DNA of 64,000 nucleotides from a virus (taxonomy: Duplodnaviria > Heunggongvirae > Uroviricota > Caudoviricetes), in the IMG/VR virus record IMGVR_UViG_2585427773_000003; one strand, given 5' to 3'. Below are positions 2,057 to 60,034 of the stretch, in pieces. The notes beneath the pieces are model-generated. The model was not told the origin of the DNA, made no database searches, and saw only the letters and a program-made list of their open reading frames with translations. Made by a program: the position numbers and the translations under genes. Every line of letters starts with the position of its first letter. Position 1 is the stretch's first letter.

Positions 2057-2374
2057 TGGAGAGTTCCCTTTGCGTATATAATTATCGTCTGAAACAACTT
2101 GTTTTCTTATATGTGATATAGCCTAAATGCCTACGGCTGCGGTGTAAAGGTTAAATGGTAGGTTGTGATTAACAATTGGCAAACATAGCTTGTATTTGTC
2201 TGTTGAAAAAAGTAACAATGACATCTATATTACAAGTACGGTGATATGCCGTACACAATTTGATAATGCACACGTAATGGGCTATAGCCTTTTAAAGTAA
2301 TTTTTGAGTCGAAAACTCAGTTTGAACAGAGGAGATTGATGGCCTTCCTACATCACGGCCATCAGGAGGAATAC

Positions 2375-2644
2375 ATGTCAGCACTAAAAAAGCAGCGCAT
2401 CGATTTGAGATTAACCGATGACGATAAAAGCATCATCGAGGAAGCTGCCGCAATGTCTAACCAGAGCATTACTCAGTTTATGGTTAGCAGTGCATCTGAA
2501 CGTGCCGTGAAAGTTATAGAGCAACACCGTAGACTAGTTCTGAATGAAGAATCCTGGAATCTGGTTATGGACGCTATAAGCAATCCTCCGGCACCGAACG
2601 ACAAGCTGAAACGAGCTGCTGATCGTCTGAAAAGCATGGAGTAG
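2375..2644 (+). CDS. ataR: DUF1778 antitoxin (AtaR/TacA-like)
   Basis: MSALKKQRIDLRLTDDDKS...NEESW motif pattern of DUF1778 antitoxins; RBS aggagga; alternative start at 2339. Confidence 0.75.
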   Translation: MSALKKQRIDLRLTDDDKSIIEEAAAMSNQSITQFMVSSASERAVKVIEQHRRLVLNEESWNLVMDAISNPPAPNDKLKRAADRLKSME

Positions 2645-2651
2645 TTTACTC

Positions 2652-3173
2652 GTGAGCAATACAACGATAGAGATTTTCTCTGGAGAGAAAGATTATGATC
2701 TAAACGGTTTTGATTGCGGCGAAGAGTCACTAAACGCCTTTTTAGCCAACCACTTAAAAAGGCAGCATGAGGGAAAAATTCTTCGTGCTTATGTGCTTTG
2801 CACTCAAGAAGAAAGGCCAAAAGTGTTAGGATATTACACTTTGTCAGGTAGTTGTTTTGAAAAGGAGTCCTTACCTTCAAGAAGCAAACAAAAGAAGGTT
2901 CCTTATCGGAATGTTCCAAGTGTTACTTTGGGTAGGCTGGCTTTGGACAAGTCCCTTCAAGGTCAAGGATTTGGCTCAATGCTTGTAACACATGCAATGC
3001 GCGTTGTGTACAATGCATCTCTTGCTGTAGGCATTCATGGACTTTTCGTTGAGGCGTTAAATGACAAAGCCAAGGCGTTTTATAAAAGTTTAGGCTTTAT
3101 CCAGCTGGTTGGTAACAACGAGCGTTCTTTGTTCTATCCTACAAAATCTATCGAAAAATTGTTCGACGAATAA
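2652..3173 (+). CDS. ataT: GNAT acetyltransferase toxin (AtaT/TacT-like tRNA acetyltransferase)
   Basis: GTG start; YDLNGFDCGEE, LGYYTL, SVTLGRLALDKSLQGQGFG motifs as recalled for AtaT-family toxins; 8 nt after antitoxin stop. Confidence 0.75.
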   Translation: MSNTTIEIFSGEKDYDLNGFDCGEESLNAFLANHLKRQHEGKILRAYVLCTQEERPKVLGYYTLSGSCFEKESLPSRSKQKKVPYRNVPSVTLGRLALDKSLQGQGFGSMLVTHAMRVVYNASLAVGIHGLFVEALNDKAKAFYKSLGFIQLVGNNERSLFYPTKSIEKLFDE

Positions 3174-3176
3174 TGT

Positions 3177-3198
3177 GTTCCCCTCATTTGAGGGGAAC
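3177..3198 (+). terminator. Hairpin after toxin gene (weak terminator)
   Basis: gttcccctc-attt-gaggggaac perfect 9-bp stem; poor T-tract. Confidence 0.35.
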
Positions 3199-3205
3199 TT
3201 CGACA

Positions 3206-3421
3206 TCACCAACCACAAACCCTCTCTCCCATCGTATTGTGAAAAAGGATTTGGCGTTCGGTTTCTTCAGTCATTACATCATTATTGCTGATATAGATAG
3301 GCTCAGCCCCATCGCAGAACAACACGCTGGCTGTTTGTGGTTTAATGACGCACCCACTTATCATACAACTCACGATGAACGGCAGAAGCATCTTTCTGAC
3401 GTATTTTACTGCTCGTCTCAT
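3206..3421 (-). CDS. o-spanin (Rz1-like outer membrane lipoprotein), overlapping i-spanin
   Basis: Signal peptide MRRAVKYVRKMLLPFIVSCMISGC with lipobox ISGC; encoded in alternate frame overlapping 3' end of i-spanin gene. Confidence 0.5.
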   Translation of the reverse strand: MRRAVKYVRKMLLPFIVSCMISGCVIKPQTASVLFCDGAEPIYISNNDVMTEETERQILFHNTMGERVCGW

Positions 3422-3593
3422 TCACCACTTTCACTGTGTTTTGAAGTCGTTTTCTGTCTTCCTGTTTTGCCTTCTCTTCCATTGCTCGTCGCGCCGCATT
3501 CCCGCCCATCGTGTAAGCGCCGACAAGAACGAAAAGAACGGCAGCCAGCGTAATCAAAGCAACTTTTAGCTTTGTCATCAGGCTGCCTAGCAT
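3342..3593 (-). CDS. i-spanin (Rz-like)
   Basis: N-terminal TM helix followed by charged coiled-coil-like segment; directly follows lysin gene (TAAtATG). Confidence 0.5.
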   Translation of the reverse strand: MLGSLMTKLKVALITLAAVLFVLVGAYTMGGNAARRAMEEKAKQEDRKRLQNTVKVVNETSSKIRQKDASAVHRELYDKWVRH

Positions 3594-3594
3594 A

Positions 3595-4287
3595 TTAGAC
3601 CATCCCTTTCTGGTGTTTTCTTACCTGCGACCAGGCAATGAATCCTGCCACAACAATAGTGGCAATACCGAAGATGATGCGTACTGTATCCCCGCTAGAG
3701 ATATGACCTTGTGCTTTATCCATAGCAGCGGAAACCTGCGGCATAACATCGGCCAGCTGCGCCAGACCAATACCTGCTGTAACAGTTGCGCCTGCGGTTT
3801 CTTTAGTTACAGGAACAGCCTTCACGGTTTTCACCGGCTTAACAACGCCAGCTCGACGCAGACCTTCCTCAATAACTTCTGCCGCATACCAGGTGTTCAG
3901 CGTTTTTAGCGGGCCTCGGCCATTCTCGTGGCGAATGATTGCCTCAACCAAAGGTCGAAGGATGTCGTAATCATGCAGATCGATGATCATGTCTGCGGTT
4001 ACACCAACGGCTTTAGACACCTCATTAATGTAGGCGTCAGTATTGTTTTCATTCGGCGGTGCCCAGCGTTCAATAACTTCACGAATGGTATCGATACTTG
4101 TGCCGTCTTTTGCGCGACGTTTATCGTGGTAGGTAATTAGAGTCACCGCCAGCGCACGAATCCCCCAAACAGGGTCTTTAAACGTGCAAAAGCGCGGTTC
4201 GGCAGGGTTGTCGATTAGCCCCTGCCACGGCGAACCTTTGTCGAGGTTGCCAGGGTTGTTATTACGAATGCCTCTCGGAGTTTTCAT
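3595..4287 (-). CDS. Putative lysin / peptidoglycan hydrolase-like protein with C-terminal membrane anchor
   Basis: Position in lysis cassette; GIRNNNPGNL motif; C-terminal hydrophobic helix; strong RBS aggaga before ATG at 4287. Confidence 0.45.
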   Translation of the reverse strand: MKTPRGIRNNNPGNLDKGSPWQGLIDNPAEPRFCTFKDPVWGIRALAVTLITYHDKRRAKDGTSIDTIREVIERWAPPNENNTDAYINEVSKAVGVTADMIIDLHDYDILRPLVEAIIRHENGRGPLKTLNTWYAAEVIEEGLRRAGVVKPVKTVKAVPVTKETAGATVTAGIGLAQLADVMPQVSAAMDKAQGHISSGDTVRIIFGIATIVVAGFIAWSQVRKHQKGMV

Positions 4288-10401: not shown

Positions 10402-10494
10402 GTTGAATATGCTCCTTGATTTAGCGGGTTATCCTTGCCCGCCATTAAGTAAATACTTACCTATTTTTACCGATATAAAATTTTTTTTCCACCA

Positions 10495-17309: not shown

Positions 17310-17391
17310 TGTTTCATCCTTGAAATAAGTAGGCGCTAACATCCTGTCAGCGCCACAATGATAGTAAATTAGTACTTACTTATCCAGATAC

Positions 17392-41141: not shown

Positions 41142-41539
41142 ATTGTCTTTAACTCACTCCAACAACATAAAAATAAGCGCCAAAATAACGCCATAGACGC
41201 GCTTTTATATCCTTGCCAGTACATACCCATTACTTAACACATTAACGCGCTTAAAACGCGTTATAGCGCATAGTTAATCATTGGCTTTTAGTCTTGCTTT
41301 ATGATCCGCGTTTATTTGTCGGTGCGGATCGGTATTTTGTTTTGTTCTGTATCCGCTCGCGTATTATGTGCGCGTGATTTTTCACATAATCACACCACTT
41401 AATCACGTATGTGATTATGCTACGAAAGAAATCTGGATGTCTCAGGTGACGAAAGTCATCATAATTTTCCCCGCTCACCTGTCCGACAACCGCTGGTTGG
41501 ATTCCACCAGCTTCCCGATGTTTTTTTCTACACAAAGGC

Positions 41540-41665
41540 AAATGCAGCCGTTTCCCGAAAAAATCCTGGCCGTTCCCCGTCGGCTCATGAATACGTTCCT
41601 CGCCGCTTCTGAAAATTTCCCTGCGGCAGCTGGTGGCTATAGAGAAAGGGCCGTTTCTGGCCCTC
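41540..41665. repeat. Iteron-like direct repeats, cluster A
   Basis: Repeated GCCGTTTCCCGAAAA-like units at about 20-bp spacing. Confidence 0.45.
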
Positions 41666-41672
41666 TTCTCAG

Positions 41673-42155
41673 TTACACGCCATCAAGGATGTGGATGCGG
41701 TTGCTTGCGTATACATTCAGCATAAAGTTAGCGCAAAACAGTTTCCATGTATCAACGCCAGCGGTATACGTAATGTTTTTGCATTTAATTGCATTGTTGG
41801 CGATCCGCATCCCCTGCGATACTGCTTCATCGTCGGAAAATTTGAACGACGATTGAGTTTTAATCCAGACAGAAATCTGCGTAGCGAACTCAATCAGCTT
41901 GGACTGGCAGAATCGCCCGGAGCGCACCGGAAAGACGAACGTTCCGAATCCAGAATTTACCACATACGCTTTCTCAAATACCCGCGAGTAACGACGATTG
42001 CCAATGATGTCGCGTGCAATAATGCATTTTTCTTGTGCTGACAGTTCTACCGTCTCATTGTCGCGCCATGCACCAAGTACTCGTTTTTCAATGTCAGAGA
42101 ACGTTACAGCGATATTGCCATGTGCGGGTGCGTTTACAGTAGCGATAAAATTCAT
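41673..42155 (-). CDS. Hypothetical protein
   Basis: 160 aa ORF; operator-like motif 42177-42189 just upstream. Confidence 0.45.
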   Translation of the reverse strand: MNFIATVNAPAHGNIAVTFSDIEKRVLGAWRDNETVELSAQEKCIIARDIIGNRRYSRVFEKAYVVNSGFGTFVFPVRSGRFCQSKLIEFATQISVWIKTQSSFKFSDDEAVSQGMRIANNAIKCKNITYTAGVDTWKLFCANFMLNVYASNRIHILDGV

Positions 42156-42359
42156 GATTAATTCCTTATCGTAAATAACAAATTGTTTTCTTGTTGGTGT
42201 TAATTATCGTTGTACGAATAAGGCGTCAAAGTGGAAAGTTGCGGTAGCCGGACGGGAACAGGTGGGTTTGTCGGTTGCCTGGAGGTAAGAGGTTGGTGTT
42301 TTTAGCCTGCGGGAAACAAGATGGTCATTTAAGGCCACCAATGCTGATGGCCTTAATAA

Positions 42360-42503
42360 TTATCGCACGATTACGCTAAGGATCTTTTCCTCAACTGATT
42401 TGTTGTTGCGACTAAACTGCCTTGCGTATCTGATGACAGAAGAGGCGTTTTGCTTTCTGACCATCTCGGCTCTTTCCTTCAGGCGTTTCTTGAAATCGCC
42501 CAT
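42360..42503 (-). CDS. Possible small basic protein (47 aa)
   Basis: ATG at 42503, basic composition; below ORF-track size cut-off. Confidence 0.2.
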   Translation of the reverse strand: MGDFKKRLKERAEMVRKQNASSVIRYARQFSRNNKSVEEKILSVIVR

Positions 42504-42505
42504 AT

Positions 42506-42880
42506 TTACCACCAGGCGCAGAAGGTCAGTCTGTTATTGTGAAAGTCGTGGTTCTTAATCAGATCTTCCACAAGCTCTTTCAACTGCCCCACATCATGCC
42601 AGTAACCTTCATCGTACTCCTGACTGCCGAAGAAAAAACCTTCCCGGGTAGGCAAGTACTCTTCGCAATTACTTTCGTTTATGTGCATCAAATGAGCCTT
42701 CAGAAAACAAATGTCATTCATCGTTAATTCTAAAAGCTCACAATTTTCGACTTCACCTACGTTGCGCTCCATCCACCCAACGAGCGCATTGAACTTACGG
42801 AAGTAAGCAACCTGCTTTCTGGATGCCTCGTTATTCAGATCGTTTTTAGGTTGTGTCTCGATATAGATATCAAGTCCCAT
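42506..42880 (-). CDS. Hypothetical protein
   Basis: ORF starting MGLDIYIETQ. Confidence 0.4.
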   Translation of the reverse strand: MGLDIYIETQPKNDLNNEASRKQVAYFRKFNALVGWMERNVGEVENCELLELTMNDICFLKAHLMHINESNCEEYLPTREGFFFGSQEYDEGYWHDVGQLKELVEDLIKNHDFHNNRLTFCAWW

Positions 42881-42997
42881 GATGGTTTCCTTATTAAGTT
42901 GCTTCAGTGAAATCATTTTCACAAATCAGATAAGGCAGAAAACAAATTGTTATCGGGCTTAATAAAATGGCGCGGTTTACGCGCCATTTAAAGAGGA

Positions 42998-43393
42998 TTA
43001 AGCGAATACGCTTTCAGGGATTAAGGTGTCGGCAGGAATGCCAGAGGTAATGCGCAGGCCGTACTGACCAATCCAGGTAGTGTTGGTATTCAGGTTGGAG
43101 GCGAATACGGTGTTAACCATATTCATCATGGTTTCAAACACCTCTTCATCAACCTGGCGGAAGTAGTTCTCGATTTTCAGCAGCAGCGGGTCAGTTGCAT
43201 CGAAAATAGACTGGTATTGAGTCGCGTACTCGCCGCCGGAGGCATCACCTTTACGCACGATCGTACTGGCCTGGACTTCGGCACCAGTTTCGGTGTTGTA
43301 CGTAACAACGGTGATTTTTGCCACATTCTTACCTTCGGCGGTTTCAGAGGCATAGTAAACATCAACTGTCAGTTTTTCGCGTTTAACGGTCAT
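42998..43393 (-). CDS. Hypothetical protein
   Basis: ATG at 43393 with RBS ggagag; palindrome 43437-43452 upstream. Confidence 0.45.
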   Translation of the reverse strand: MTVKREKLTVDVYYASETAEGKNVAKITVVTYNTETGAEVQASTIVRKGDASGGEYATQYQSIFDATDPLLLKIENYFRQVDEEVFETMMNMVNTVFASNLNTNTTWIGQYGLRITSGIPADTLIPESVFA

Positions 43394-43436
43394 TTCACTC
43401 TCCGTAGTGTTTTGGTTATTTTTATATTCTATGATA

Positions 43437-43452
43437 GTAAGTATGTACTTAC
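43437..43452. promoter_or_regulatory. Palindrome GTAAGTAtgTACTTAC
   Basis: 44-59 bp upstream of start at 43393. Confidence 0.45.
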
Positions 43453-43455
43453 AAT

Positions 43456-43486
43456 ACAAAAAAGCCCCGTAAGGATGGCGGGGCTG
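43456..43486 (-). terminator. Rho-independent terminator
   Basis: Stem agccccg/cggggct, T-tract on minus strand. Confidence 0.6.
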
Positions 43487-43519
43487 TCGTACTGTCGACT
43501 AATTGCCACTTGCACATTA

Positions 43520-43831
43520 TCAGGCTATTGCCATCACTGATGCTCTCTGAATCTCTTGCTGGGCCACGCGGTTAACTTCCATCAAAGCCAGTTCGAGCTG
43601 ATGTTCCGGCCACATTCTTTGAAATGCCACCCAGCCTTTTCCACGCTGGCGACGAACATTCATTACATAACGAGTAAAGGTGTTTTTATCGAAAGACACC
43701 GCTGTTTCACGGAACAGACGAATAGAGGTTCCATTGGCAACGATGTCCAGCAAAGTTAATTGAGCAACCAGCGCAGGCTTCTCTTTTCTCTTCTGGTCTT
43801 TGTCCAGACCAAGAACCAATGATTTTTTCAT
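43520..43831 (-). CDS. Hypothetical protein
   Basis: ORF with RBS ggag; conserved 65-bp upstream module (43843-43905) paralogous to 44327-44395. Confidence 0.45.
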   Translation of the reverse strand: MKKSLVLGLDKDQKRKEKPALVAQLTLLDIVANGTSIRLFRETAVSFDKNTFTRYVMNVRRQRGKGWVAFQRMWPEHQLELALMEVNRVAQQEIQRASVMAIA

Positions 43832-43984
43832 TACAACTCCGTAAACAACTTGTTTTCTCAATGGCGTAAATAATACCAGTAAGAAAACGGCTACAAAGCA
43901 TATTGATCAGGTGCATGAGCGATATGCAGGTTCTTCCCTGCGGCTATAGAGAAATTAAGCCAGCATTGCTGGCTTTGGTTGGGG

Positions 43985-44314
43985 TTACTCGAATACTTCA
44001 AGAAACTCCTGAACGTCCCAATGCTGGACGAGGTGAAGATAGACCTTAGAAATCACGTCATTTTCGCTATCGCATGTGAAGTAGTACTTCTGGCTGCGGT
44101 TGTATGTGTCCACACAAAATTCGCTCATATCCATAAAGTCAGCATCTTCACCCAGGTCGCTGATCATCAAAGCAGGTGCGTCATCACGAGTCATCAGTTC
44201 CAGCACCCATCTTGAATTGATCAGAGTGGAAGACCAACCTTCTAACTCATAAAACTGATCAAACTCTTTTTGAGTTAATTTCTTGATTTGGTTGATGTCG
44301 ATATTTGTAAACAT
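43985..44314 (-). CDS. Hypothetical protein
   Basis: ATG 44314 with RBS aagga. Confidence 0.45.
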   Translation of the reverse strand: MFTNIDINQIKKLTQKEFDQFYELEGWSSTLINSRWVLELMTRDDAPALMISDLGEDADFMDMSEFCVDTYNRSQKYYFTCDSENDVISKVYLHLVQHWDVQEFLEVFE

Positions 44315-44452
44315 AAAGCAATCCTTAAACATGTTGTTTTCTGAATTGCGTAAACAATACCAGTAAGAAAACGGCCACAAAGTATATCGTTACGGTGTTG
44401 CGCTGCCCGGAGGTTAATAGCGACAAAAGCCACCGTGCTGGTGGCCTCACTC

Positions 44453-44671
44453 TTAATCTTCGTCGCCCGGGAACTCGCTGTGTACCGCGTCCACCAGCTC
44501 CCGCTTTTCATCTTCACTCAGCAGGTGCCAGATATCCTTCCCTTTGGGCGATTCCCCTTCTGCCGGGACGAACGACCACAACTTGCGGTACAACTCCGGC
44601 CCCACTGCATCCAGACACTCAGCCAGGGAATCCACGCCCCACACCTCAACCGTCACAGGCATCTTAATCAT
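44453..44671 (-). CDS. Hypothetical small acidic protein
   Basis: 72 aa; operator-like motif 44704-44718 upstream. Confidence 0.4.
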   Translation of the reverse strand: MIKMPVTVEVWGVDSLAECLDAVGPELYRKLWSFVPAEGESPKGKDIWHLLSEDEKRELVDAVHSEFPGDED

Positions 44672-45049
44672 CTCTTCATCCTCACTTCGTTTATATAACG
44701 TCTAAACATGTTGTTTACTTGTTGGTGTTATTATCGCAATAAGACAAAGGCGGAAAAGGATTTTATTCCGGTGAATGTGGTTTTGGCAGTGAGTTTTCAG
44801 GTTCAGTACCGAGTACACTTTTTACATTATTCTGATTTAGTGGCCGAATGTGGCTGGTGGCAGAGTAATCCTCTCCCCAAAAACCTACTGAAATCGATTG
44901 TGACCCGTTGGCTGTCTGGCACAATTACGCTGTAGCTGGGCATTCAGAGGGAATCCAGCGGTAAGCAAGTCCGCCTACGTGAGCGCCTCTCTTCTTCCCG
45001 CACATTACAGGTGGGTAGCCGCAACTCTCCCTCTCGCTATACCGGTACG

Positions 45050-45190
45050 CCACCGTTCCTGAGCCGGCATCGAGCCTTTTCCCGAAATCCACACAGGCAA
45101 CTCGACCGTTTCCCTGAAAACCTCCAGCCGTTCCCCGAAGGCAACCCAGCCGTTTCTGTAGCGGGATGCAGCCTTTTCCCTGTATGGACC
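45050..45190. repeat. Iteron-like direct repeats, cluster B
   Basis: Six units resembling (A/C)GCCGTTYCCCKGAA at about 21-23 bp periodicity. Confidence 0.5.
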
Positions 45191-45239
45191 GAAGGCTGAC
45201 CGTAGGGGTGTTACGGGGGGATAAAATCAGGAGTTGAAT

Positions 45240-46230
45240 AAATACGAAAAAGGAGGCGACACCCCTCCTTCCCTCCCCACTTATACATACCTGGCTTCTT
45301 CGCTATACATGTTGTGTTTTATCTGTCTCAACCTCTCTATAGGCGTTAATGCTCACTCCTTCCAGAATGTTCTATACGGCGACTATTTCTGTTGGTGAAT
45401 TGGGTGTGTTGTTTTCTCTGTCGGTGTATGTGGTTTCGTTCGTTTTGCGGTGGTTCTTCTATGGGGTGTTCTCGTCGTTTTGGTGATTGTTCTTCTCCGT
45501 GTATGGAGTAATGGCAGGTGGGCGATTCCTTTCGTTATTGTGTTTGAGTTGTTTGTCTGGAGTGTGTGAAAGGCTTTTGTAGTTATTCGTGTATTGGGTA
45601 ATGGCGTTTCCCGTGATTGTTATGCTTCGAGTCTTTTGGGATTGAGAGAATCCTTGCGGTTACAGGCTTCGTTGGGGTTTCAGTGATTCTGGTGTTTCTT
45701 CGCTGTTTGGGGAATGGCGTGTCGTGGGTATCGCGCGTATGAATGTTTTCGGATTGCCTGTGAAAGTTAGGTTGGTTGTCCGGTAGCCTGGGGAGAAGAG
45801 GTGGGTCTTTTCGGTAGCCTGCCATAAAGAGGTTGGTTGTTTTGGGTAATGGCATATGTGTTATTTAGTTGTTTTGTTATACCTGAAAATATGTTGTTTA
45901 TATGGTTGTGTAACGCAACGGGAGCGATTTTGAGCGTGTGTTTTTGTTGGTAGTGTGTTGAGTCGTCTGTGGTGAAAATTGGACTCTGTGGCGCTGTCTG
46001 CTGCGTAGAGTTACGGGTATAAGCAGTGATGTGTGAAAACGTCAATTTTTTAGACCAAATCGGGTGAAAGCGTTGATGTTTCGTTGATCTGTTATTCAGT
46101 TGTTTTCTTGATTGTATAAACAACTATAACTTATTGATATTTAAGGATGTGATTGCAGGTATTGAAGGGGAGTAGTGGCGATCAACGGATTCTTATAGAA
46201 AAGAATCAAATTGTGACCGCCATTATCAAT
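45240..46230. other. GT-skewed non-coding tract with dispersed repeats
   Basis: Strong G+T bias on plus strand; repeated GGGTAATGGC-like units about 100 bp apart; ORFs here are low-complexity and implausible. Confidence 0.5.
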
Positions 46231-46233
46231 GTT

Positions 46234-46968
46234 TTACTTAGTTTTGTTTAGCAGAGAGAGAATTTCATCACTAATTTCACTCGCCTGTTTGATAGCCAAT
46301 GCAGTTACCTCTTCTATGGTTGGTGACTGTTGATGCTCATGTTTGGTTTCAGTTATGACAATGTGTTCTTCACCTGAATTTGCGCATAGTGCCGCATTGA
46401 CTATAAGGTTTGAGTAAGAATTTAGCAGAGCACTGTTGATAAACGCTTTCACGGTATTACTGTCTGCACCAAATACATCTTTTCTGACCGCTTCAGCCTC
46501 ACAGCGAACCCCTGCAGCAACATCGTGAAGAACATGTATGGCCTTGGAGCTTGTTTGTTCACAGTACTCAATCATTATTGTCGAATTGTTCTGTTCAACA
46601 AACGATCTGATGCCTGACGATTTACCCATAGCATCGAAGGCAGCGTGACCCGCACTAGTAGAGATATCTTCATAGAGTTCTTCATCGCTATCTTTTTCTT
46701 CAGGTGTCGAGGTGTCTTCATCGTCGTAATAGATATTGCCTTTAATCAGTGTCTTGGACACTTGATATAAACAATAAGAAACGAGATTTAAGCATTGGAT
46801 TTTAGCTGTATTGTCCTTTGTCGCCTCGCTATTCAGTTCTTTCGCTTCTTCAGTAAGGCTGTTGATAAGACTTTGTATTTTTTCCAACGCGTTAGGTGCA
46901 CACTCCGCGTTGTCCATAAAGAATTTATAACCAGTCCCAGGGATTTCTAAACTTTTCAACTTTTTCAT
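46234..46968 (-). CDS. Hypothetical protein
   Basis: 244 aa ORF. Confidence 0.45.
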   Translation of the reverse strand: MKKLKSLEIPGTGYKFFMDNAECAPNALEKIQSLINSLTEEAKELNSEATKDNTAKIQCLNLVSYCLYQVSKTLIKGNIYYDDEDTSTPEEKDSDEELYEDISTSAGHAAFDAMGKSSGIRSFVEQNNSTIMIEYCEQTSSKAIHVLHDVAAGVRCEAEAVRKDVFGADSNTVKAFINSALLNSYSNLIVNAALCANSGEEHIVITETKHEHQQSPTIEEVTALAIKQASEISDEILSLLNKTK

Positions 46969-47013
46969 TTCTTTGATAATCCTAAAAACAAACTACCAAT
47001 GCTTTAACATCTG

Positions 47014-47322
47014 TTACCAGTTCCAGCACTCAAGCCCTTCAACGACCGGCGCACCACAATCAAAATGTACAGAGTCAAAGCCTACATCAAGTACTTTCTG
47101 AATGTTAGCAATCGCGCCTTCGGATATACCATATCGACGCAAGTCCTCTTTCCAGACATCATCCTGTAACCCAGCGTGGACAATACAACCGCCGTCAATT
47201 TGTGAAACCCAATCCAGCTCATTGCTTGCGATCATGAATCGGCGAGCATCTTCCTCTGATGTATGAGATGAACTGATCAATGCCACCTGGTAGGCTTGGG
47301 TAATGTTCAACATTTCAACCAC
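47014..47322 (-). CDS. Hypothetical protein
   Basis: 102 aa ORF. Confidence 0.4.
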   Translation of the reverse strand: MVEMLNITQAYQVALISSSHTSEEDARRFMIASNELDWVSQIDGGCIVHAGLQDDVWKEDLRRYGISEGAIANIQKVLDVGFDSVHFDCGAPVVEGLECWNW

Positions 47323-47326
47323 TCCG

Positions 47327-47391
47327 AAACAATTTGTTTTCTTATGTGGCTTATTATCTCAATCAATAAAAGGTAGAAAACAAATTGTTTT
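47327..47391. promoter_or_regulatory. Two operator-like palindromes AAACAAtTTGTTTT / AAAACAAaTTGTTTT
   Basis: Immediately upstream of gene starting at 47322. Confidence 0.5.
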
Positions 47392-47428
47392 AGGGTTTGT
47401 TAAAGTCAGAAGGGGTTGTGTCTATATG

Positions 47429-47452
47429 AAAATGCCCAGCGTATTGCTGGGC
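47429..47452 (-). terminator. Rho-independent terminator of metG
   Basis: Stem gcccagc/gctgggc followed by T-tract on minus strand, 23 bp after metG stop. Confidence 0.7.
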
Positions 47453-47474
47453 ATTGTGAAGAATGGTTGCTTAA

Positions 47475-49508
47475 TTACTTAACCTGGTGGCCAGGTTTAG
47501 CACCGACATCCGGGCTTAACAGGAAGATATCTTTCCCGCCGGGGCCAGCAGCCATCACCATGCCTTCGGAGATACCGAAGCGCATTTTACGCGGAGCCAG
47601 GTTAGCCACCATAATGGTGTGACGACCAATCAGTGCCTGTGGGTCTGGATAAGCAGAACGGATGCCTGAGAAGACATTGCGTTTTTCACCGCCGAGATCC
47701 AGCGTCAGGCGTAGCAGTTTGTCAGAACCTTCAACAAACTCTGCGTTTTCAATCAGTGCCACGCGCAGGTCAACTTTAGCGAAGTCGTCAAAGGTGATGG
47801 TTTCCTGAATCGGGTCGTCTGCCAGTGGGCCAGTTACCGGTGCGGCTGTGGCTCTCACTTCTTCTTTGGATGCTTCCACCAGTGCTTCCACCTGTTTCAT
47901 ATCGATACGGTTATACAGTGCCTTGAACGGATTCACTTTATGGCCCAGCAGCGGTTGCTGGATACCATCCCAGGTCAGTTCTGTATTCAGGAATGCTTCT
48001 GCACGTTCAGTCAGTTTCGGCAGTACCGGCTTCAGGTACGTCATCAGCACGCGGAACAGGTTAATGCCCATAGAGCAAATCGCCTGCAGATCGGCATCGC
48101 GTCCTTCCTGCTTCGCCACCACCCACGGAGCCTGTTCATCGACATAGCGGTTAGCCAGGTCAGCCAATGCCATGATTTCACGGATAGCTTTACCAAATTC
48201 GCGGCTTTCCCATGCTTCGCCAATCACTTCAGCGGCATCAGTAAAGGTTTTGTACAGTTGCGGGTCAGCCAGTTCGTTTGCCAGCACGCCGTCAAAACGC
48301 TTGTTGATAAAGCCTGCATTACGGGAGGCCAGGTTAACCACTTTGTTCACGATATCGGCATTCACGCGCTGAACGAAATCCTCCAGGTTGAGATCGATAT
48401 CATCAATGCGCGAAGAGAGTTTCGCAGTGTAGTAGTAACGCAGGCTGTCGGCGTCAAAATGATTCAGCCAGGTGCTGGCTTTAATAAAGGTGCCGCGAGA
48501 CTTGGACATCTTCGCGCCGTTCACCGTCACATAGCCGTGAACAAACAGGTTGGTCGGCTTGCGGAAGTTGCTGCCTTCCAGCATGGCAGGCCAGAACAGG
48601 CTGTGGAAGTAAACAATATCTTTACCGATGAAGTGGTACAGCTCGGCGGTGGAGTCTTTCTTCCAGTATTCATCGAAGCTGGTGGTATCGCCGCGCTTGT
48701 CGCACAGATTCTTGAAGGAACCCATGTAGCCAATCGGCGCGTCCAGCCAGACGTAGAAATATTTGCCCGGCGCGTCCGGAATTTCAAAACCGAAGTAAGG
48801 CGCATCGCGGGAGATATCCCACTGTTGCAGGCCAGATTCAAACCACTCCTGCATTTTGTTTGCCACCTGCTCCTGCAACGCGCCGCTGCGGGTCCATGCC
48901 TGCAACATTTCGCTGAAAGAAGGCAGATCAAAGAAGAAGTGTTCGGAATCACGCATTACCGGGGTAGCGCCAGAAACCACCGATTTCGGCTCGATCAATT
49001 CAGTCGGGCTATATGTTGCGCCGCAGACTTCACAGTTATCGCCGTATTGATCTGGCGCTTTACATTTCGGGCAGGTGCCTTTTACAAAACGATCCGGCAG
49101 GAACATGCCTTTTTCCGGGTCGTACAACTGAGAGATAGTGCGGTTTTTAATAAAACCGTTCTCTTTCAGGCGAGTATAGATAAGCTCAGACAACTGACGG
49201 TTCTCTTCGCTGTGCGTCGAGTGATAGTTGTCATAGCTGATGTTAAAGCCTGCGAAATCAGTCTGGTGTTCCTGACTCATTTCGCCAATCATCTGCTCCG
49301 GTGTGATACCAAGCTGCTGTGCTTTCAGCATGATCGGCGTACCGTGGGCATCGTCGGCACAGATGAAATTAACCTCGTGGCCGCGCATTCGCTGGTAACG
49401 AACCCAGACATCAGCCTGGATGTGCTCCAGCATATGGCCGAGGTGGATTGAGCCGTTAGCGTACGGCAGCGCGCACGTCACCAGAATTTTCTTCGCGACT
49501 TGGGTCAT
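47475..49508 (-). CDS. metG: Methionine--tRNA ligase
   Basis: 677 aa; HIGH-type motif [16 protein letters not shown], Zn-knuckle CPKC...C..CG, C-terminal tRNA-binding domain; sequence recalled as very close to enterobacterial MetG. Confidence 0.95.
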
Positions 49509-49665
49509 AGTAGGCATTACTTCTTTGTAGTGAAAAGGGGCTTGATAGTAACAAAATGGCCTTATGTCTGCCATGTGATAACAGCATTTCTCATAAATGA
49601 TTAAATGTCGTAGCTGGAGTACACTACAAGGCGACAATTGCGCAAATTAAAATAAAGGAGACGGG

Positions 49666-50766
49666 ATGAGCGAGTCCAAATCGCCGGATGCCCTGAGAGC
49701 AATGGTAGCCGGTACGCTGGCTAATTTTCAGCACCCAACCCTGAAACACAACCTGACTACGCTTAAAGCGTTACACCATGTTGCGTTGATGGATGACACA
49801 CTGCATGTCGAACTAATCATGCCTTTCGTGTGGAATAAGCCTTTTGAAGACCTGAAAGAGCAATGTAGTGGTGATCTGCTCCGTATCACTGGCGCAAAGG
49901 CTATTGACTGGAAGCTGTCGTACAACATTGCCACGCTTAAGCGCGTCAAAAACCAACCAGGCATTAATGGCGTTAAGAACATTATCGCCGTCAGCTCAGG
50001 CAAGGGCGGCGTGGGTAAATCCTCCACGGCGGTAAACCTGGCACTGGCGTTGGCTGCTGAAGGTGCGAAAGTTGGTATTTTGGATGCCGATATCTATGGT
50101 CCATCAATTCCAACCATGCTGGGCGCGGAAAACCAACGTCCAACCTCACCTGACGGTACTCACATGGCACCTATCATGTCTCATGGCCTGGCAACCAACT
50201 CTATTGGTTATCTGGTCACCGACGACAATGCAATGGTGTGGCGTGGACCGATGGCCAGCAAGGCGCTGATGCAGATGTTGCAGGAAACTCTATGGCCTGA
50301 TCTGGACTATCTCGTTCTCGATATGCCGCCGGGCACTGGTGATATTCAGTTGACGCTGGCGCAGAACATTCCTGTAACTGGTGCGGTTGTGGTAACTACG
50401 CCGCAAGACATCGCGCTGATCGATGCGAAGAAAGGCATTGTGATGTTCGAAAAAGTCGAAGTGCCGGTACTGGGTATCGTCGAAAACATGAGTGTGCATA
50501 TTTGCAGTAACTGCGGTCATCACGAGCCAATTTTTGGCACCGGTGGCGCACAGAAACTGGCCGAGAAATACAACACGCAGTTGTTAGGCCAAATGCCACT
50601 TCATATCTCTCTTCGTGAAGATCTGGATAACGGAACACCAACCGTTATTAGTCGTCCAGATAGCGAATTTACGGCTATTTATCGTGACCTCGCAGATCGC
50701 GTTGCCGCCCAAATGTATTGGCAAGGTGAAGTAATACCTGGCGAAATCGCATTCCGCGCAGTGTGA
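49666..50766 (+). CDS. apbC: Fe-S cluster carrier ATPase ApbC/Mrp
   Basis: 366 aa; P-loop SGKGGVGKSS, CxxC motif CSNCGH; divergent from metG as in Enterobacteriaceae chromosomes. Confidence 0.95.
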   Translation: MSESKSPDALRAMVAGTLANFQHPTLKHNLTTLKALHHVALMDDTLHVELIMPFVWNKPFEDLKEQCSGDLLRITGAKAIDWKLSYNIATLKRVKNQPGINGVKNIIAVSSGKGGVGKSSTAVNLALALAAEGAKVGILDADIYGPSIPTMLGAENQRPTSPDGTHMAPIMSHGLATNSIGYLVTDDNAMVWRGPMASKALMQMLQETLWPDLDYLVLDMPPGTGDIQLTLAQNIPVTGAVVVTTPQDIALIDAKKGIVMFEKVEVPVLGIVENMSVHICSNCGHHEPIFGTGGAQKLAEKYNTQLLGQMPLHISLREDLDNGTPTVISRPDSEFTAIYRDLADRVAAQMYWQGEVIPGEIAFRAV

Positions 50767-50803: not shown

Positions 50804-51193
50804 CTACATCACGGGACAATCATCAAACTCGCCACTTCTTGCGTCGTTGATAATGTGAGTGATCACACCAAACACGGCATTGCTGCCCGTGCATCCATCG
50901 TCATCCTTTGGCAATGCTTCCTTCTTACCGGTTCTTAAATCCTCCAGATGCTGACGTGGGTACTTCCGGTATCTTTTTACGCGATATTCCCCATCCAGAG
51001 CGCATACAAGCAGAGAACCATCAACCGGGGTAAGTGAGGAATCGACCACCAGCAATGCACCCTGTAATATTCCCTCACGATGATGACTATCAGCTGCCCT
51101 CATGAAGTAGGTCGCTGAAGGATGTCTAATTATCTGCTGATCAAGAGAAATACGGCTCTCAGCATAATCCGCCGCAGGAGAAGGGAAGCCCAT
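50804..51193 (-). CDS. UmuD-like S24 peptidase (LexA/UmuD family)
   Basis: FPSPAADY...HPSATYF...DS...VDGEY.VKRY pattern matching UmuD; Ser/Lys dyad positions retained; perfect LexA box upstream. Confidence 0.75.
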   Translation of the reverse strand: MGFPSPAADYAESRISLDQQIIRHPSATYFMRAADSHHREGILQGALLVVDSSLTPVDGSLLVCALDGEYRVKRYRKYPRQHLEDLRTGKKEALPKDDDGCTGSNAVFGVITHIINDARSGEFDDCPVM

Positions 51194-53001: not shown

Positions 53002-54074
53002 TCGTCATCCTCATCCGAGTCATCCTCATCACAGGATGAGAGTAGTGGGTTAGTCATTCGCCCTACTTGAGTGGCGTAGCCACGCCGACAGAGATTGCGC
53101 AGCACACTGTATATTTCGAACATCTCGGTTCGTTCATCGCCAACATCAAGCTCAGATGCTATAGCGTGGCATTCAGTCGCGAGAGCCGATATTTTCTGAA
53201 ATAACTCTGCATTATTCACTGTTCGACTCCTGCGGCGTTCTGGTAGTGGCATCCAGTGTGTGACATTGCTAATCAGACCATATTCATTAGTTTGAGGATG
53301 GTTGCCGTTATCGTCTCCGTATTTAAAACTTTCCATAAAACCATAATGCTTACCCCCATTAACGCTCACAAAGCCGTAATAAGCTGGTATAACGCCGATC
53401 TCACACGTAATCAGCAAAGGAAAACCAGTTCTCCAATTTAGCTCGCCGATTACAGGCATTCGCTCACTACAGCTTATCCAGCTATCCTTAATGCCACTAT
53501 CTTGACTCTGAAGCATGGCGGCGCGGCAGGCGTTCCATGCTCTCCAGTTGCGTGACTCAATCCCAGCTGGATAAGGGTCAGAGCTTCCTACGATGCACTT
53601 TTCATCCTCAACCATCCACCGTTCAAAATCCGCTCGGAACTTATCGTTGTCAACCACCGCTGGCTGCGGTAACTTTGGTTCCATCAGTGACTCCAGTTCA
53701 GCAATGCGCTTCTCTGCGGCTTCCAGCTCAACGCGCAGCTTCCCAACCGTTAGCGCAATATCCTCGTTCTCCTGGTCACGGCGTTTGATGTATTGCTGGT
53801 TCCTTTCCCGTTCATCCAGTAATACCAGCACAGTAGCCGGGTTGGCTGCGGCGATGAATTCAGCATTGGCCTGCTGCTCCATTTGGAAATCTTCATCGAA
53901 ACCGCTTTCAGGATGCGCTCCTTCAATTCTGCAAATGGGAATATATCCAGCAGCCTCGCGATGAATTAGTGCATCATCACCATCAAATCTGCCATCTCCA
54001 TATTCTAGCGACCACTCGCCACACGTTGCTTTCTCTGCCTTTTCACGCAGTGCCTGATAGTCAATCTTGCTCAC
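52998..54074 (-). CDS. Ead/Ea22-like protein (DUF551-type C-terminus)
   Basis: Resembles prophage Ea22-family proteins: coiled N-terminal half, C-terminal W..CSERMP...THWMPLP segment. Confidence 0.55.
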   Translation of the reverse strand: MSKIDYQALREKAEKATCGEWSLEYGDGRFDGDDALIHREAAGYIPICRIEGAHPESGFDEDFQMEQQANAEFIAAANPATVLVLLDERERNQQYIKRRDQENEDIALTVGKLRVELEAAEKRIAELESLMEPKLPQPAVVDNDKFRADFERWMVEDEKCIVGSSDPYPAGIESRNWRAWNACRAAMLQSQDSGIKDSWISCSERMPVIGELNWRTGFPLLITCEIGVIPAYYGFVSVNGGKHYGFMESFKYGDDNGNHPQTNEYGLISNVTHWMPLPERRRSRTVNNAELFQKISALATECHAIASELDVGDERTEMFEIYSVLRNLCRRGYATQVGRMTNPLLSSCDEDDSDEDDE

Positions 54075-54622
54075 TGGTTGCCTCCTTTGCGAAGCTGTTC
54101 AGCAATACTTACGCATATCTCTGCGCCTCTAATCAGCCCCGGAACGTTCTTGTTTGGCCCAACTTCACCATCAACAAAATCAATCATCGCGTTACGAGCC
54201 ATATCCACGCCCTGCGCACGTACTTCAGCCAGAAAAGCATCGGTGGCTGGAGTTTCTATGCACTGCATTTCATGCAATGTCTGCATGTCCATAAAATCCC
54301 CGTCAGGCTCTGTGATAGTGGCGTTATATGCCGAGTAAATTTTTGACGCTTCATGTGCCAGTTCCGCAGCCTTAGATCGCAATGCCACATTCTCCGCCGC
54401 TAATGCGTCTCTCTGCGCCCGCAACTTCTCAATTTCGGCAGCCATGTAGTAACCAACCATAGCGAAGACGGCAAAAGAGTTATCTGCCTCATCAGGCGAC
54501 ACTGAGGCCATTAGCAGGCCATCGTAAAAATCGTGACTCCCATTGGTGATCGCCACCGCATAGGAGTCGTGGTTCTCGCGCTTGTGAATGAGAACTACGG
54601 GATTTTCGATTTTGTTACTCAT
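54071..54622 (-). CDS. Hypothetical protein
   Basis: 183 aa ORF. Confidence 0.45.
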   Translation of the reverse strand: MSNKIENPVVLIHKRENHDSYAVAITNGSHDFYDGLLMASVSPDEADNSFAVFAMVGYYMAAEIEKLRAQRDALAAENVALRSKAAELAHEASKIYSAYNATITEPDGDFMDMQTLHEMQCIETPATDAFLAEVRAQGVDMARNAMIDFVDGEVGPNKNVPGLIRGAEICVSIAEQLRKGGNQ

Positions 54623-54760
54623 GTGTTTTTCTCTTCTTTGCTGTTACATAAGCACTACCAAGTGCTGGTTTATTTTCACAAATAAGAAAAGGTAGAAAAC
54701 AATTTATTTAAGGCCATAACTTATGGCCTTTATTTATTCATGCAGAAGGATTTGTAGCGC

Positions 54761-57591: not shown

Positions 57592-57694
57592 AATTGCACC
57601 ATTAAGAAGTGATTTGTTTAATGGTGCAATTATTTCAAAAATGAAAAGGTACTAAATAGAAATAAACAGGCAATCGTTCAAATAAAGGCATTGG

Positions 57695-58309
57695 CTAATC
57701 ATACTTGGAGGTATTTATCACCAGAATTTTGTTTGTATAAATCTTCTTAATATCCCATGTGACATTACCGGAATACCATTGACCGTTATATACTTGGTTT
57801 CCAGTTGCACCTGTCATTGTTACATAGACAGGTCTGTCGTAATCGGTTCGTCTATAGTTATATACCCCAACCATAGCAGGCATTACCGCACATGGATACC
57901 CCATATCTATTGTAAATTGAGGGTCAGAAATAGTGATAAGTTTCGCATCAAGGGGCATCATCTCACCGTGATACACCATTGCGCCTGCGCTGTTATACAT
58001 GGCAATGCCATAGCCAGAATGTGGTAACACCATATCAGAAAAAGCATAAACTGTTATTGTTCCGGGGCTACCATTTACCTGATGCAATCTGAGAGCATTG
58101 TATCCGTTACTATGCTCATGAATAAACATCATGTTCGCCTTATTACTGCTTTTTATGAAAAAAAAACATGATTTGTTTGATGGGATTGATGTTTGAAAAA
58201 CAGAACCTTTAGATGTAGACATTGTCCCTTTATTAATCAGATTTTGCGGAGTAAATTCTGGACTCATCCACAAACTTCCATCTGATTGAGTAATTGACAT
58301 CCCGAACAT
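57695..58309 (-). CDS. Hypothetical protein (AT-rich cassette gene 2)
   Basis: Low-GC ORF; contains A9/T9 homopolymer at 58156-58164. Confidence 0.35.
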   Translation of the reverse strand: MFGMSITQSDGSLWMSPEFTPQNLINKGTMSTSKGSVFQTSIPSNKSCFFFIKSSNKANMMFIHEHSNGYNALRLHQVNGSPGTITVYAFSDMVLPHSGYGIAMYNSAGAMVYHGEMMPLDAKLITISDPQFTIDMGYPCAVMPAMVGVYNYRRTDYDRPVYVTMTGATGNQVYNGQWYSGNVTWDIKKIYTNKILVINTSKYD

Positions 58310-58311
58310 AA

Positions 58312-58593
58312 TTATCCCCAGTATGTGTATATGTAAGAACCAAGCCCCGTATATAAATTTGACCAACTAACCGTATTTCCATTAATAGTAACTGTTGGAA
58401 CAGGTAAATTAATGTAGTTGTCGTTGTTAAGAGGCATCAATGACCACACGGCATGTAGCGATTTACCCGGTGGCGGATTGGAGTACGTCTTAGAGCCTGA
58501 TGACGCAGTAAATCGATCAAGAAAAAAAATAGGAGTAAGGAAGCCAGTAACGTTAATTCCTTTATTGTTGTAAATCCCTGTACCGTATGCCAT
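58312..58593 (-). CDS. Hypothetical protein (AT-rich cassette gene 1)
   Basis: 93 aa, G/N/T/Y-rich; stop followed 2 nt later by next ATG. Confidence 0.35.
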   Translation of the reverse strand: MAYGTGIYNNKGINVTGFLTPIFFLDRFTASSGSKTYSNPPPGKSLHAVWSLMPLNNDNYINLPVPTVTINGNTVSWSNLYTGLGSYIYTYWG

Positions 58594-58648
58594 TTTTCAT
58601 CCTTGTTTTTTATCAACACAATATGGCCGATCATGCGGCCATATCAGA

Positions 58649-59218
58649 TCAATTAGAGCTTTGAAAGGCTTTGTGTGGCTGTGTTGCGAGGTTATGTCGA
58701 TGGCTTAACTCACGCATCATGTCTTCAAGCCGACTCTTTGTGTCGTCGAGTTGGTCGGCCATTGCTCCCAAAAGCTGACGAACGGCCATCGGATCATCGC
58801 TGTTTAGTGATGGCATTTTATAACCCGCCTGAGAAGACATAAGATTGAACGCAGACATCAACATCGTTAGAGAGGATTTAAGCCCAGCAATTTCACGATC
58901 TTTGCTGGCAATAATCGCCTCACTCTTGTTAGTGTCATCAGTTCGTTGAGTCTCGCTCACCATATCCAAAGTCGCCTGCAACTTATCAGCGCGCTCTTTT
59001 TCAGCAAGATAATGAACACCGAAATGATGTGCTAAAGCTACAACCTGAGTTGGCTCTTCAAAGGTGGACTCAAAATTAAGTGCTGTAACCACTCTCTCAA
59101 ATATGGAAACGTCTTCTATTCCTCGAAGAATGGCTAACATTTTGACCAGTTCATTAGCATCCATTTCTTCGAATAAGGCGTTTTGTTCATCAGCTATCGC
59201 TTTGCATTTCTTGCACAT
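58649..59218 (-). CDS. Hypothetical protein
   Basis: 189 aa; operator-like motif 59237-59250 upstream. Confidence 0.45.
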   Translation of the reverse strand: MCKKCKAIADEQNALFEEMDANELVKMLAILRGIEDVSIFERVVTALNFESTFEEPTQVVALAHHFGVHYLAEKERADKLQATLDMVSETQRTDDTNKSEAIIASKDREIAGLKSSLTMLMSAFNLMSSQAGYKMPSLNSDDPMAVRQLLGAMADQLDDTKSRLEDMMRELSHRHNLATQPHKAFQSSN

Positions 59219-59515
59219 GTGTTTTTCCTAATGCTTAAACAAGTTGTTTTCTTATTGGCTTTATTGTGATGTGGCATAAAAGGGGAGCAAGCTAAACGTA
59301 AAGGTGCAAACTCTCTATTTCGGTCAACGAAACACAAGGGCCATTTGGCCCTTGTCATTAACACGTTGCTTTACGGACTAGCGGATAAGCGAAGTAGATC
59401 GCCAGACCAATGAGGACGCCATCAGAAATGACAGACATCATCTTTCCCGTAAAATCCACCAACACCGCCATCACCAGAAGAGCAATGACGATCACAAGCC
59501 GGAATCTCTCAAGCA

Positions 59516-59941
59516 TTAGAGATAAGCATCCAGTGACAACTGAAGCGCCTGGGCGATCTTTTTAAGTGCCTGCTCTTCTTGTTCGCCAATGCCGTCCTGA
59601 TCGGCAATATCAAGGCACAGACACAGAACATCGACCGCCTCTGGAGTACCCGCAATATCAGACAGCTCACGAATAGCCTGTGCATTAGCAGAACGAGGGG
59701 ACGCTTCGTAACGAGCACGGATATTGGCGCTCATTTGGGCAATTTCACCAGCAAACGGAGAAAACGCAGGCAGAGCTGCAATTGTCTTCTCAAGAATGGC
59801 AATTTCTTTTGCGTCACATGTGCCGTCGGCATAGGAGATCATGTACGCGCCCCACACGGTGGCCTCAACCGCATCACGGTTCTCCATTTTTTTGACTTCG
59901 ATAACAGCTTTACGAGTTTTCTTTTTGAAGAAACCTAACAT
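59516..59941 (-). CDS. TerB-like domain protein
   Basis: ISYADGTCDAKEIAILEKTIA resembles TerB-type helical motif; operator-like motif 59965-59980 upstream. Confidence 0.35.
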   Translation of the reverse strand: MLGFFKKKTRKAVIEVKKMENRDAVEATVWGAYMISYADGTCDAKEIAILEKTIAALPAFSPFAGEIAQMSANIRARYEASPRSANAQAIRELSDIAGTPEAVDVLCLCLDIADQDGIGEQEEQALKKIAQALQLSLDAYL

Positions 59942-60034
59942 GTGTTTTCCTTTTGTTATTTGTCAAAACAAGTTGTTTTATAGTTTCATAAATTGCTTAC
60001 GCAAAGATGGTCAATGCATATGCACTAACAGCCG

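Follow-up and report, generated by a model that had tools for sequence, protein, structure and literature searches.

The systems closest to the one described here are the C1 regulon of phage P1, whose operators are asymmetric 17-mers (ATTGCTCTAATAAATTT), the KorA and KorB regulons of plasmid RK2/IncP, where the KorB site OB is TTTAGCSGCTAAA, and the partition systems of plasmids TP228 and pSM19035, whose small proteins ParG and omega autoregulate via sites upstream of parA. In the phage-plasmid N15, dispersed palindromic centromeres are established; it has four sites and a large SopB. We analyzed a 64,000-nucleotide stretch of DNA, called the window below, from a virus of the Caudoviricetes (IMG/VR record IMGVR_UViG_2585427773_000003), in which the palindrome AAACAA-N-TTGTTT recurs ahead of genes. 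We found that this palindrome is a real feature that reaches more promoters than first noted and is conserved across its family: near-perfect copies are enriched, they stand at fixed distances from -10 hexamers, they recur unchanged in related elements, and the genes behind them are, with few exceptions, silent in a lysogen. The palindrome is probably a double-stranded DNA operator for a dimeric, two-fold symmetric repressor encoded by the SSU5-like backbone. This reading rests on the perfect dyad, the fixed -10 phase at two positions where a bound protein would clash with RNA polymerase, the pairing of sites at helical-turn spacing, and the silence of the targets.

The stretch from 40000 to 50000 is 98.6% identical to the Escherichia coli plasmid pHH107-1 (NZ_CP116406.1), 95-98% identical to phages CMS-2020a, Cyrano, and PhiR41_1, and, in parts, ~80-83% identical to Klebsiella phage-plasmids and to Salmonella phage SSU5. 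Because of these identities, we assign the window to an SSU5-like phage-plasmid of E. coli, of which it covers 64 kb out of ~110 kb. Such phage-plasmids are common in Enterobacteriaceae; we tested backbone genes of this type in PLSDB, and ~800 records carry them. Reviews describe SSU5-like elements as carriers of resistance genes and give no control scheme. Our full-text literature search, which one 2026 preprint lay outside, found neither a control logic for the plasmid-lytic switch of SSU5-like elements nor an earlier report of the motif. One invariant operator at ~20 promoters would be a direct handle on this switch, and the motif would help to predict which cargo genes the carrier state keeps silent.

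Abundance and promoter geometry of the palindrome

The exact sequence AAACAA-N-TTGTTT occurs 7 times in the window, against 0.10 expected from shuffles. There are 13 copies with at most one mismatch, every one of them intergenic, and 19 with at most two mismatches, for which 6.0 are expected. At up to three mismatches, the count is 62 versus 52 expected and the excess is gone. Thus, the signal consists of near-perfect copies and is not a compositional effect. The first-pass annotation of this DNA had proposed a palindrome regulon that would fall if the motif were no more frequent than AT-rich intergenic DNA predicts. In the 8.9 kb of AT-rich DNA outside open reading frames of at least 100 aa (GC 42%), we counted 11 sites with at most one mismatch, while 0.10 were expected and the highest count in 500 dinucleotide shuffles was 2; the enrichment exceeds 100-fold, and the proposal withstands this test. 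All ten sites of that annotation are present within 1-2 bases of where it placed them, six exact and four with one mismatch, and four more sites (32815, 32840, 42940, and 45887) lie beyond its list (Table 1). The bias toward gene starts that it required is also there: all sites lie upstream of minus-strand genes, and for 11 of the 13, the gap between palindrome and start codon is 11-46 nt. Nearly all genes of the window are on the minus strand. The promoter modules that it took to be conserved, 43843-43905 and 44327-44389, agree at 55 of 63 positions (87%). Its description of the regulon as one of accessory and early genes was right about an operator-like palindrome common to many promoters but too narrow in scope, since sites in the window and the whole replicon also precede parA, a terS-like packaging gene, a DnaB-like helicase gene, cobT, and nrdB. 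The last three were found in the complete pHH107-1 replicon, along with additional sites before other genes.

Two promoter layouts recur. At eight sites, a -10 hexamer (GATAAT, TATTAT, CACAAT, etc., often with TGn before it) is followed 13-14 nt on by the palindrome, and the ribosome-binding site and start codon come 11-35 nt past the palindrome. At three sites (42940, 47378, and 54697), a terminator hairpin is followed by the palindrome, exactly 19 nt, and TGnGA(A/T)AAT, and the palindrome lies 59-74 nt upstream of the start codon. With the hexamer set at -12 to -7, the palindrome spans ~+8 to +20 in the first layout and ~-44 to -32 in the second, and we call these +14 and -38 sites after their approximate centers. 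When 69 sites were pooled from the window, SSU5, pJN2-26, and pCAV1099-111, a set in which orthologous sites are counted several times, -10-like hexamers peaked 13-14 nt upstream (24 sites) or 19 nt downstream (14 sites) of the palindrome. Both positions are filled around one promoter at 47327/47378, and this 51-bp pairing was seen 7 times in five genomes. A 24-25-bp pairing was seen 5 times, for example, ahead of terS. A standard sigma-70 consensus scan in which a -35 match was required found none of these promoters, so they are promoters without a -35 match.

For a DNA operator, both positions would be suited to repression. A protein bound at ~+8 to +20 would block RNA polymerase binding or promoter escape, and an operator at ~-44 to -32 would overlap the -35 region. 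The 51-bp distance between centers, ~five helical turns, would leave room for looping or for cooperation between bound proteins. While the element lives as a plasmid prophage, the repressor would hold down ~20 promoters, namely, those of small early genes and of replication and nucleotide-metabolism genes and the one in the region ahead of the packaging gene, and it would also throttle parA.

The same distribution bears on the possibility that the palindromes are dispersed centromere sites for ParA and its small ParB partner, as in N15, and that their promoter position is incidental. One site does lie in the parA promoter region, and it is the single palindrome in positions 1-3600, where we found no iterated repeats that could serve as a centromere near par. 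However, the strict -10 phase at two positions and the lack of sites inside genes point to transcription control, and the Yersinia pestis plasmid pMT1 segregates with a P1-type ParAB, yet it has sites. We consider a purely centromeric role very unlikely.

TABLE 1 Palindrome copies, associated promoter features, parA, and candidate regulator genes in the window
Feature	Position	Strand	Description
Exact site	2092-2104		35 nt upstream of parA start (2056, minus); -10-like CTATAT 11 nt upstream on gene strand
Exact site	32815-32827		Proximal of 25-bp pair upstream of terS-like gene (32142-32774, minus)
1-mismatch site	32840-32852		Distal of 25-bp pair ahead of terS-like gene
1-mismatch site, +14 type	42176-42188		GATAAT 14 nt upstream; gene 41673-42155 (minus)
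1-mismatch site, -38 type	42940-42952		After terminator hairpin; TGtGAAAAT 19 nt downstream; gene 42506-42880 (minus)
Exact site, +14 type	43843-43855		TGgTATTAT 14 nt upstream; ribosome-binding site and ATG of 43520-43831 directly next; within module 43843-43905
1-mismatch site, +14 type	44327-44339		Gene 43985-44314 (minus); module 87% identical to that at 43843
1-mismatch site, +14 type	44704-44716		GATAAT 13 nt upstream; gene 44453-44671 (minus)
Degenerate site (2 mismatches)	45887-45899		Heads A/C-rich region without convincing open reading frame
Exact site, +14 type	47327-47339		Gene 47014-47313 (minus, DUF5983)
-10 hexamer GATAAT, extended TGa	47353-47358	-	13 nt from site 47327, 19 nt from site 47378
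Exact site, -38 type	47378-47390		Same promoter as 47327; centers 51 bp apart
1-mismatch site, -38 type	54697-54709		After terminator hairpin; TGtGAAAAT 19 nt downstream; gene 54071-54622 (minus)
Exact site, +14 type	59237-59249		CACAAT 13 nt upstream; gene 58649-59218 (minus)
Exact site	59966-59978		24 nt upstream of TerB-family gene 59516-59941 (minus)
GC-rich hairpin AGAGCGC-N6-GCGCTCT, then GTGTGTTTT	32794-32813	-	Between site pair and terS-like start codon; terminator-like
parA	1388-2056	-	Small Walker-type (type Ib-like) partition ATPase; first gene behind site 2092; matches MipZ, AAA_31, CbiA, and ParA families
Candidate 1, 119-aa "ParB-small"	1029-1388	-	Directly after parA, overlapping parA stop codon
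Candidate 2, FljA family (PF03614, E 2.5e-84)	38791-39315	+	Two tandem Hfq/Sm-like domains in model
Candidate 3, 88-aa winged-helix-like	32970-33236	-	Most conserved candidate; weak LexA_DNA_bind match; background in lysogen
Candidate 4, 92-aa, ribbon-helix-helix-like by eye	38017-38295	+	High in lysogen; predicted DNA-facing residues differ between clades

Conservation and lysogen expression of the motif promoters

Counting exact copies and copies with at most one mismatch, we found 11 and 20 in SSU5, 11 and 17 in Klebsiella pJN2-26, and 12 and 20 in Klebsiella oxytoca pCAV1099-111. The last element is well diverged from the window: identity is 74% for ParA and 75% for the winged-helix protein, 51% for the small ParB, and 39% and 38% for the FljA-like and 92-aa proteins. 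Despite candidate identities of no more than 38-75%, the 13-mer has not changed, and neither has its layout. The motif is also present in a Nissabacter-type element and in a chromosomal fragment in E. coli, and pMT1 has 6-7 sites identical to those of SSU5. Single loci are kept as well. The site upstream of parA is kept in four clades, with its context identical in SSU5, pJN2-26, and pHH107-1; the terS-side pair is kept in SSU5, pMT1, and pHH107-1; and the locus of the degenerate site 45887 has an exact motif in SSU5, pJN2-26, and the Nissabacter-type element. The palindrome was not found in two more distant relatives, Moellerella pW18-2-b and Pectobacterium Drgb1, whose promoters keep a "-10 ... 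ATAAGA AAACAA" block without the right half.

The two arms of the consensus form a perfect inverted repeat around a center without base preference. Over 78 sites, mismatches at positions 1 to 6 number 7, 0, 2, 5, 1, and 5, and those at the mirror positions 13 to 8 number 3, 0, 2, 7, 2, and 7. This mirror-symmetric tolerance supports a dyad but is suggestive rather than decisive, because orthologous sites enter the count repeatedly. It also bears on the question of whether the palindrome has any function of its own or hitchhikes in cassettes spread by duplication and recombination. Paralogous cassettes do exist, as at 43843 and 44327, and the -38 sites also share "tctaccttttcttatttgtgaaaat". 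However, many sites have kept the 13-mer and the spacing with fully diverged flanks, the 13-mer is invariant between elements whose proteins have drifted as far as those of pCAV1099-111, and positions 2 and 12 never vary in the 78 sites. Hitchhiking alone seems to us scarcely credible.

For expression, we used the RNA sequencing values per gene of a lysogen of Cyrano, a close relative of the window, in the supplementary table of PMC9928086, where background is 9.8. The first genes behind sites read 5-13, with terS at 7, cobT at 8, nrdB at 13, the TciA-like gene at 7, CYRAN_87 at 7, CYRAN_101 at 7.5, and CYRAN_105/106 at 12-13 (PMC9928086). The exceptions among the motif targets are parA at 50, the helicase at 21, and CYRAN_111 at 25. 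Expressed in the same lysogen are the toxin-antitoxin modules, repA, and a helix-turn-helix "putative repressor" (96), and the two ParB-N-domain proteins (35024-36390) are at background (PMC9928086).

Silent targets would fit a bound repressor, and they would also fit an absent activator. In this alternative, an activator or a modified RNA polymerase would recognize the palindrome or the "-10 ... ATAAGA AAACAA" block, and this would explain why the promoters have no -35 match, why the -38 sites overlap the class II activator region, and why Moellerella and Pectobacterium have kept the left half-site and the preceding block but not the right half. However, most sites are centered near +14, a position from which no activator is known to act, and in five clades it is the full dyad and not the left half alone that is kept. 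We find positive control quite improbable.

Possible RNA-level control and candidate regulators

The +14 sites place the motif in the predicted 5' leader, often directly 5' of the Shine-Dalgarno sequence. This suggests an RNA-level operator through which the Hfq-fold FljA-family protein (38791-39315) would repress translation, as was reported for Salmonella FljA, the one studied PF03614 member, on the fliC leader (PMC2652032). The motif is its own reverse complement, and so leaders could, with chaperone help, pair with one another or with the A/C-rich RNA from 45887; such self-complementarity would also account for the mirror-symmetric conservation. The FljA-like protein is recognizable in every motif-bearing element (39-100% identity), and in motif-less Moellerella and Pectobacterium, where BLAST had shown apparent absence, it is very divergent (33-34 bits, Pfam). 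In the leader of Salmonella fliC, ~24 nt ahead of the AUG, stands CAAGTTGT, which agrees with the motif core over 8 bases, but this match was made post hoc and its chance probability is estimated at ~0.01-0.02. Other results do not fit an RNA operator. The motif has no stable hairpin: the 13-mer folds with a minimum free energy of 0 kcal/mol, three full leaders fold no better than shuffles, and an Rfam search of the window gave no match, so we rejected an RNA hairpin as the identity of the motif. Pairing through two A/U-rich 6-bp helices would be weak. Start codons follow the motif at anything from 11 to 46 nt, whereas its distance to the -10 hexamer is fixed. The -38 sites precede the -10 hexamer and directly follow terminator hairpins, which should put them outside the regulated leader. 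Finally, expression of the FljA-like gene in the lysogen is low (18 against the background of 9.8). We therefore regard an RNA-level operator as unlikely. A fuller version appears to us improbable: the FljA-family protein would act on ~20 leaders, a ~650-nt A/C-rich RNA running from 45887 to the terminator at 45247-45273 would pair with the leaders or compete for them, and Salmonella FljA would be a domesticated member of a phage translational-regulator family.

The DNA operator reading, which we prefer, has to be held against several points. Transcription starts were placed from -10 hexamers alone, and the pooled geometry set counts orthologous sites more than once. The promoter cassettes are often visibly related to one another, so their fixed spacing is partly inherited and is not independent evidence. 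Expression of parA in the lysogen despite its site fits autoregulation but also a weak operator. What we infer from the DNA and its relatives is that a protein binds, that one regulator exerts the control, that this control is negative, and that looping may occur; our choice of protein has the same basis.

Given a DNA operator, our leading candidate, still a tentative one, is the small protein encoded after parA. The winged-helix protein 32970-33236, the FljA-family protein, and some other phage protein are each unlikely to be the regulator, and the 92-aa protein 38017-38295 and a host factor are each less likely again. Sequence searches of the four named candidates against the PDB gave no usable match. 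The phyletic profile over seven elements does not separate the candidates, because all of them diverge together with distance.

By its place after a small Walker ParA, the protein encoded at 1029-1388 should be the centromere-binding partner. It has the N-terminal sequence MGDLAKR, a GRP-containing basic arm, PVRPQGRPTRGK, a predicted strand, KSRTMSLEDE, and a helix, FTRSDVIRAAI. In homologues that are 49-52% identical overall, MGDLAKR, the arm, KSRTMS-EDE, and FTRSDVIRAAI are invariant and the rest drifts. A motif site lies in the promoter of its own operon in every motif-bearing clade, and in the Cyrano lysogen parA and the small ParB (CYRAN_29) read 50 and 89 (PMC9928086). Like ParG or omega, it would be partition adaptor and global repressor in one, and if so, a single protein would couple plasmid segregation to phage-gene silencing. 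Several results tell against this assignment. Its ribbon-helix-helix look is a reading of the residues, and a monomer model has low confidence (pLDDT 63) and predicts no strand. Its profile gave no match to those of ParG, omega, Arc, Mnt, and CopG, and a fold search returned only noise. Moellerella keeps the predicted strand and helix, yet it has no palindromes, and pMT1 keeps its 6-7 sites without the protein, a divergence too recent to weigh much.

In the model of the FljA-family protein, each of the two domains is a helix with five strands, they are preceded by an invariant disordered N-terminal peptide, DITYG..AE.WPRDY, and the best structural match is Hfq. Should this Hfq-fold relative prove to be the regulator, it would supply the repressor of flagellar phase variation with a mechanism and with an origin in phages. 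The three candidates named in the first-pass annotation fared differently, and the two that are better supported, the small protein after parA and the FljA-family protein, were not among them. The protein encoded at 32970-33236 is winged-helix-like, but it is not expressed in the lysogen (7.8 [PMC9928086]), and its putative recognition helix is unchanged even in both motif-less elements. The 38017-38295 protein has a ribbon-helix-helix look by eye, and the helicase with this 92-aa protein reads 46 and 114 in the lysogen (PMC9928086), but its predicted DNA-facing residues vary while the site is constant; it would fit a second, variable palindrome better than AAACAA-N-TTGTTT. Nothing speaks for 42360-42503.

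A host factor would account for the strict invariance of the site and for its absence from elements in Morganellaceae and Pectobacteriaceae hosts. However, to our knowledge no E. coli regulator consensus matches the motif; the nearest, that of KdgR (AAACA-N-TGTTT), differs in spacing. Two other proteins were rejected. The S24 peptidase (50804-51193) is without a DNA-binding domain; next to it in pHH107-1 stands a gene with the annotation DNA polymerase III theta subunit, an arrangement that recalls the humD-hot pair of P1. The helix-turn-helix "putative repressor" of Cyrano (CYRAN_45 type, next to the integrase) has no tblastn match in SSU5, which has 20 sites. This gene lies outside the window, and its promoter has a different palindrome and no AAACAA-N-TTGTTT site. 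In pHH107-1, a perfect palindrome, GGTAAGCACTTACC, stands at 17373-17386 just upstream of its start, with a GGTAAG half-site further up; it is probably the repressor's own operator. The integrase/repressor module is absent from SSU5.

Neighboring elements and comparison with known systems

According to the annotation of relatives, the window runs from parA and the small downstream gene through tail and head genes to terS/terL and a six-gene cluster that includes the two ParB-N-domain proteins. Past this cluster come an opposite-strand cluster (helicase, small proteins, and a "transcriptional regulator"), many small genes, metG, and nucleotide-metabolism genes. Divergent from parA is a KacA/KacT-type module (DUF1778 antitoxin and GNAT toxin; 2375-3173, plus strand), which is among the top-expressed genes of the Cyrano lysogen. 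The Moellerella parA is preceded by two direct repeats, AAATAACAAGGC, which the window does not have. The GC-rich hairpin at 32794-32813 is kept together with GTGTGTTTT in SSU5, pJN2-26, and pMT1. It could terminate the upstream operon or act as a terminator within the leader, tying late expression to antitermination.

The second palindrome, TAAGTA-NN-TACTTA, occurs at 10446-10459, 23870-23883, 29368-29381, 36391-36404, and 43438-43451, mostly between late genes. One copy lies between the ParB-N operon (start at 36390) and the helicase (start at 36455), in their 64-bp divergent promoter region. There are 10-15 copies in pCAV1099-111, and the half-site spacing differs by clade (Klebsiella, GTAAGTACTTAC; SSU5, also AGGTAA-N4-TTACCT), and this speaks for a second regulator that evolves faster. 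The 38017-38295 protein, whose operon starts at the 36391-36404 promoter, is a candidate for this role. An additional element of ~57 bp, hairpin-like, CCTGCTTCCGTATATATTTAATAAGTTACTTATTATTTATATATA..CAGAAGCAGG, is present twice, at 41-97 and 32891-32945, with 45 bases exactly identical and the copies 32.8 kb apart. The first copy lies beyond the par operon and the second just upstream of the motif pair before terS, and the core resembles the second palindrome. The linear map of SSU5 starts beside this element, so it may relate to packaging.

On the minus strand, 45247-45900 is a ~650-nt A/C-rich stretch (A 40%, C 29%, G 16%, and T 15%) without a convincing open reading frame, and it includes the most G-poor 500-nt segment of that strand. 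It has a motif site at its start and a terminator (45247-45273) at its end, and it holds repeated GCCATTACCC units and many AAACAA words. Its composition is kept in SSU5 and pJN2-26, and it may be a long noncoding RNA. Outside the window, the "hypothetical protein" CYRAN_43 (Cyrano record 40268-40822) has ~700 times background reads in the lysogen (PMC9928086), a level that would suit a small regulatory RNA better than an mRNA.

How does this regulon compare with those already described? FljA and fliC share with it a PF03614 protein in the element, a target that would lie between promoter and Shine-Dalgarno sequence (at +14 sites only), and the CAAGTTGT core. However, FljA has one chromosomal target and a reported action on RNA, whereas the window has ~20 DNA-type dyads, some of them upstream of the -10 hexamer. 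The SopB centromeres of N15 are likewise palindromes scattered over a phage-plasmid genome, some in promoter regions, but the element of the window has ~20 sites in strict -10 register. Omega and ParG are, like the 119-aa candidate, small proteins encoded after a small Walker ParA, with a flexible basic N terminus and a site in the par promoter, and omega also represses several other operons. Their sites are arrays of short direct or inverted repeats, unlike the one 13-bp palindrome per promoter at ~20 promoters here. Judged as a type Ib (ParG/omega) system, the window has the gene order and the site upstream of parA, it does not have the iterated repeats, and the ribbon-helix-helix of 1029-1388 is putative.

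In the P1 C1 regulon, too, one regulator is thought to hold many scattered plasmid-prophage promoters, those of a replication helper, a methylase, and small early genes, and both genomes have ~15-20 operators. The site differs, being a symmetric 13-mer here and not an asymmetric 17-bp operator. KorA and KorB of RK2/IncP also act at short palindromes (12-13 bp) at many promoters of one replicon and at more than one promoter position, and KorB is also a partition protein. However, OB differs from the palindrome of the window, and KorB is a large ParB-CTPase, in contrast to the 119-aa candidate. Because the site differs from both, the motif falls outside the P1 and RK2 families. In function, by analogy, the regulon would resemble the multi-operator regulons of P1 C1, RK2 KorA/KorB, and pSM19035 omega, and it would resemble N15 as well if the partition protein binds the palindrome.

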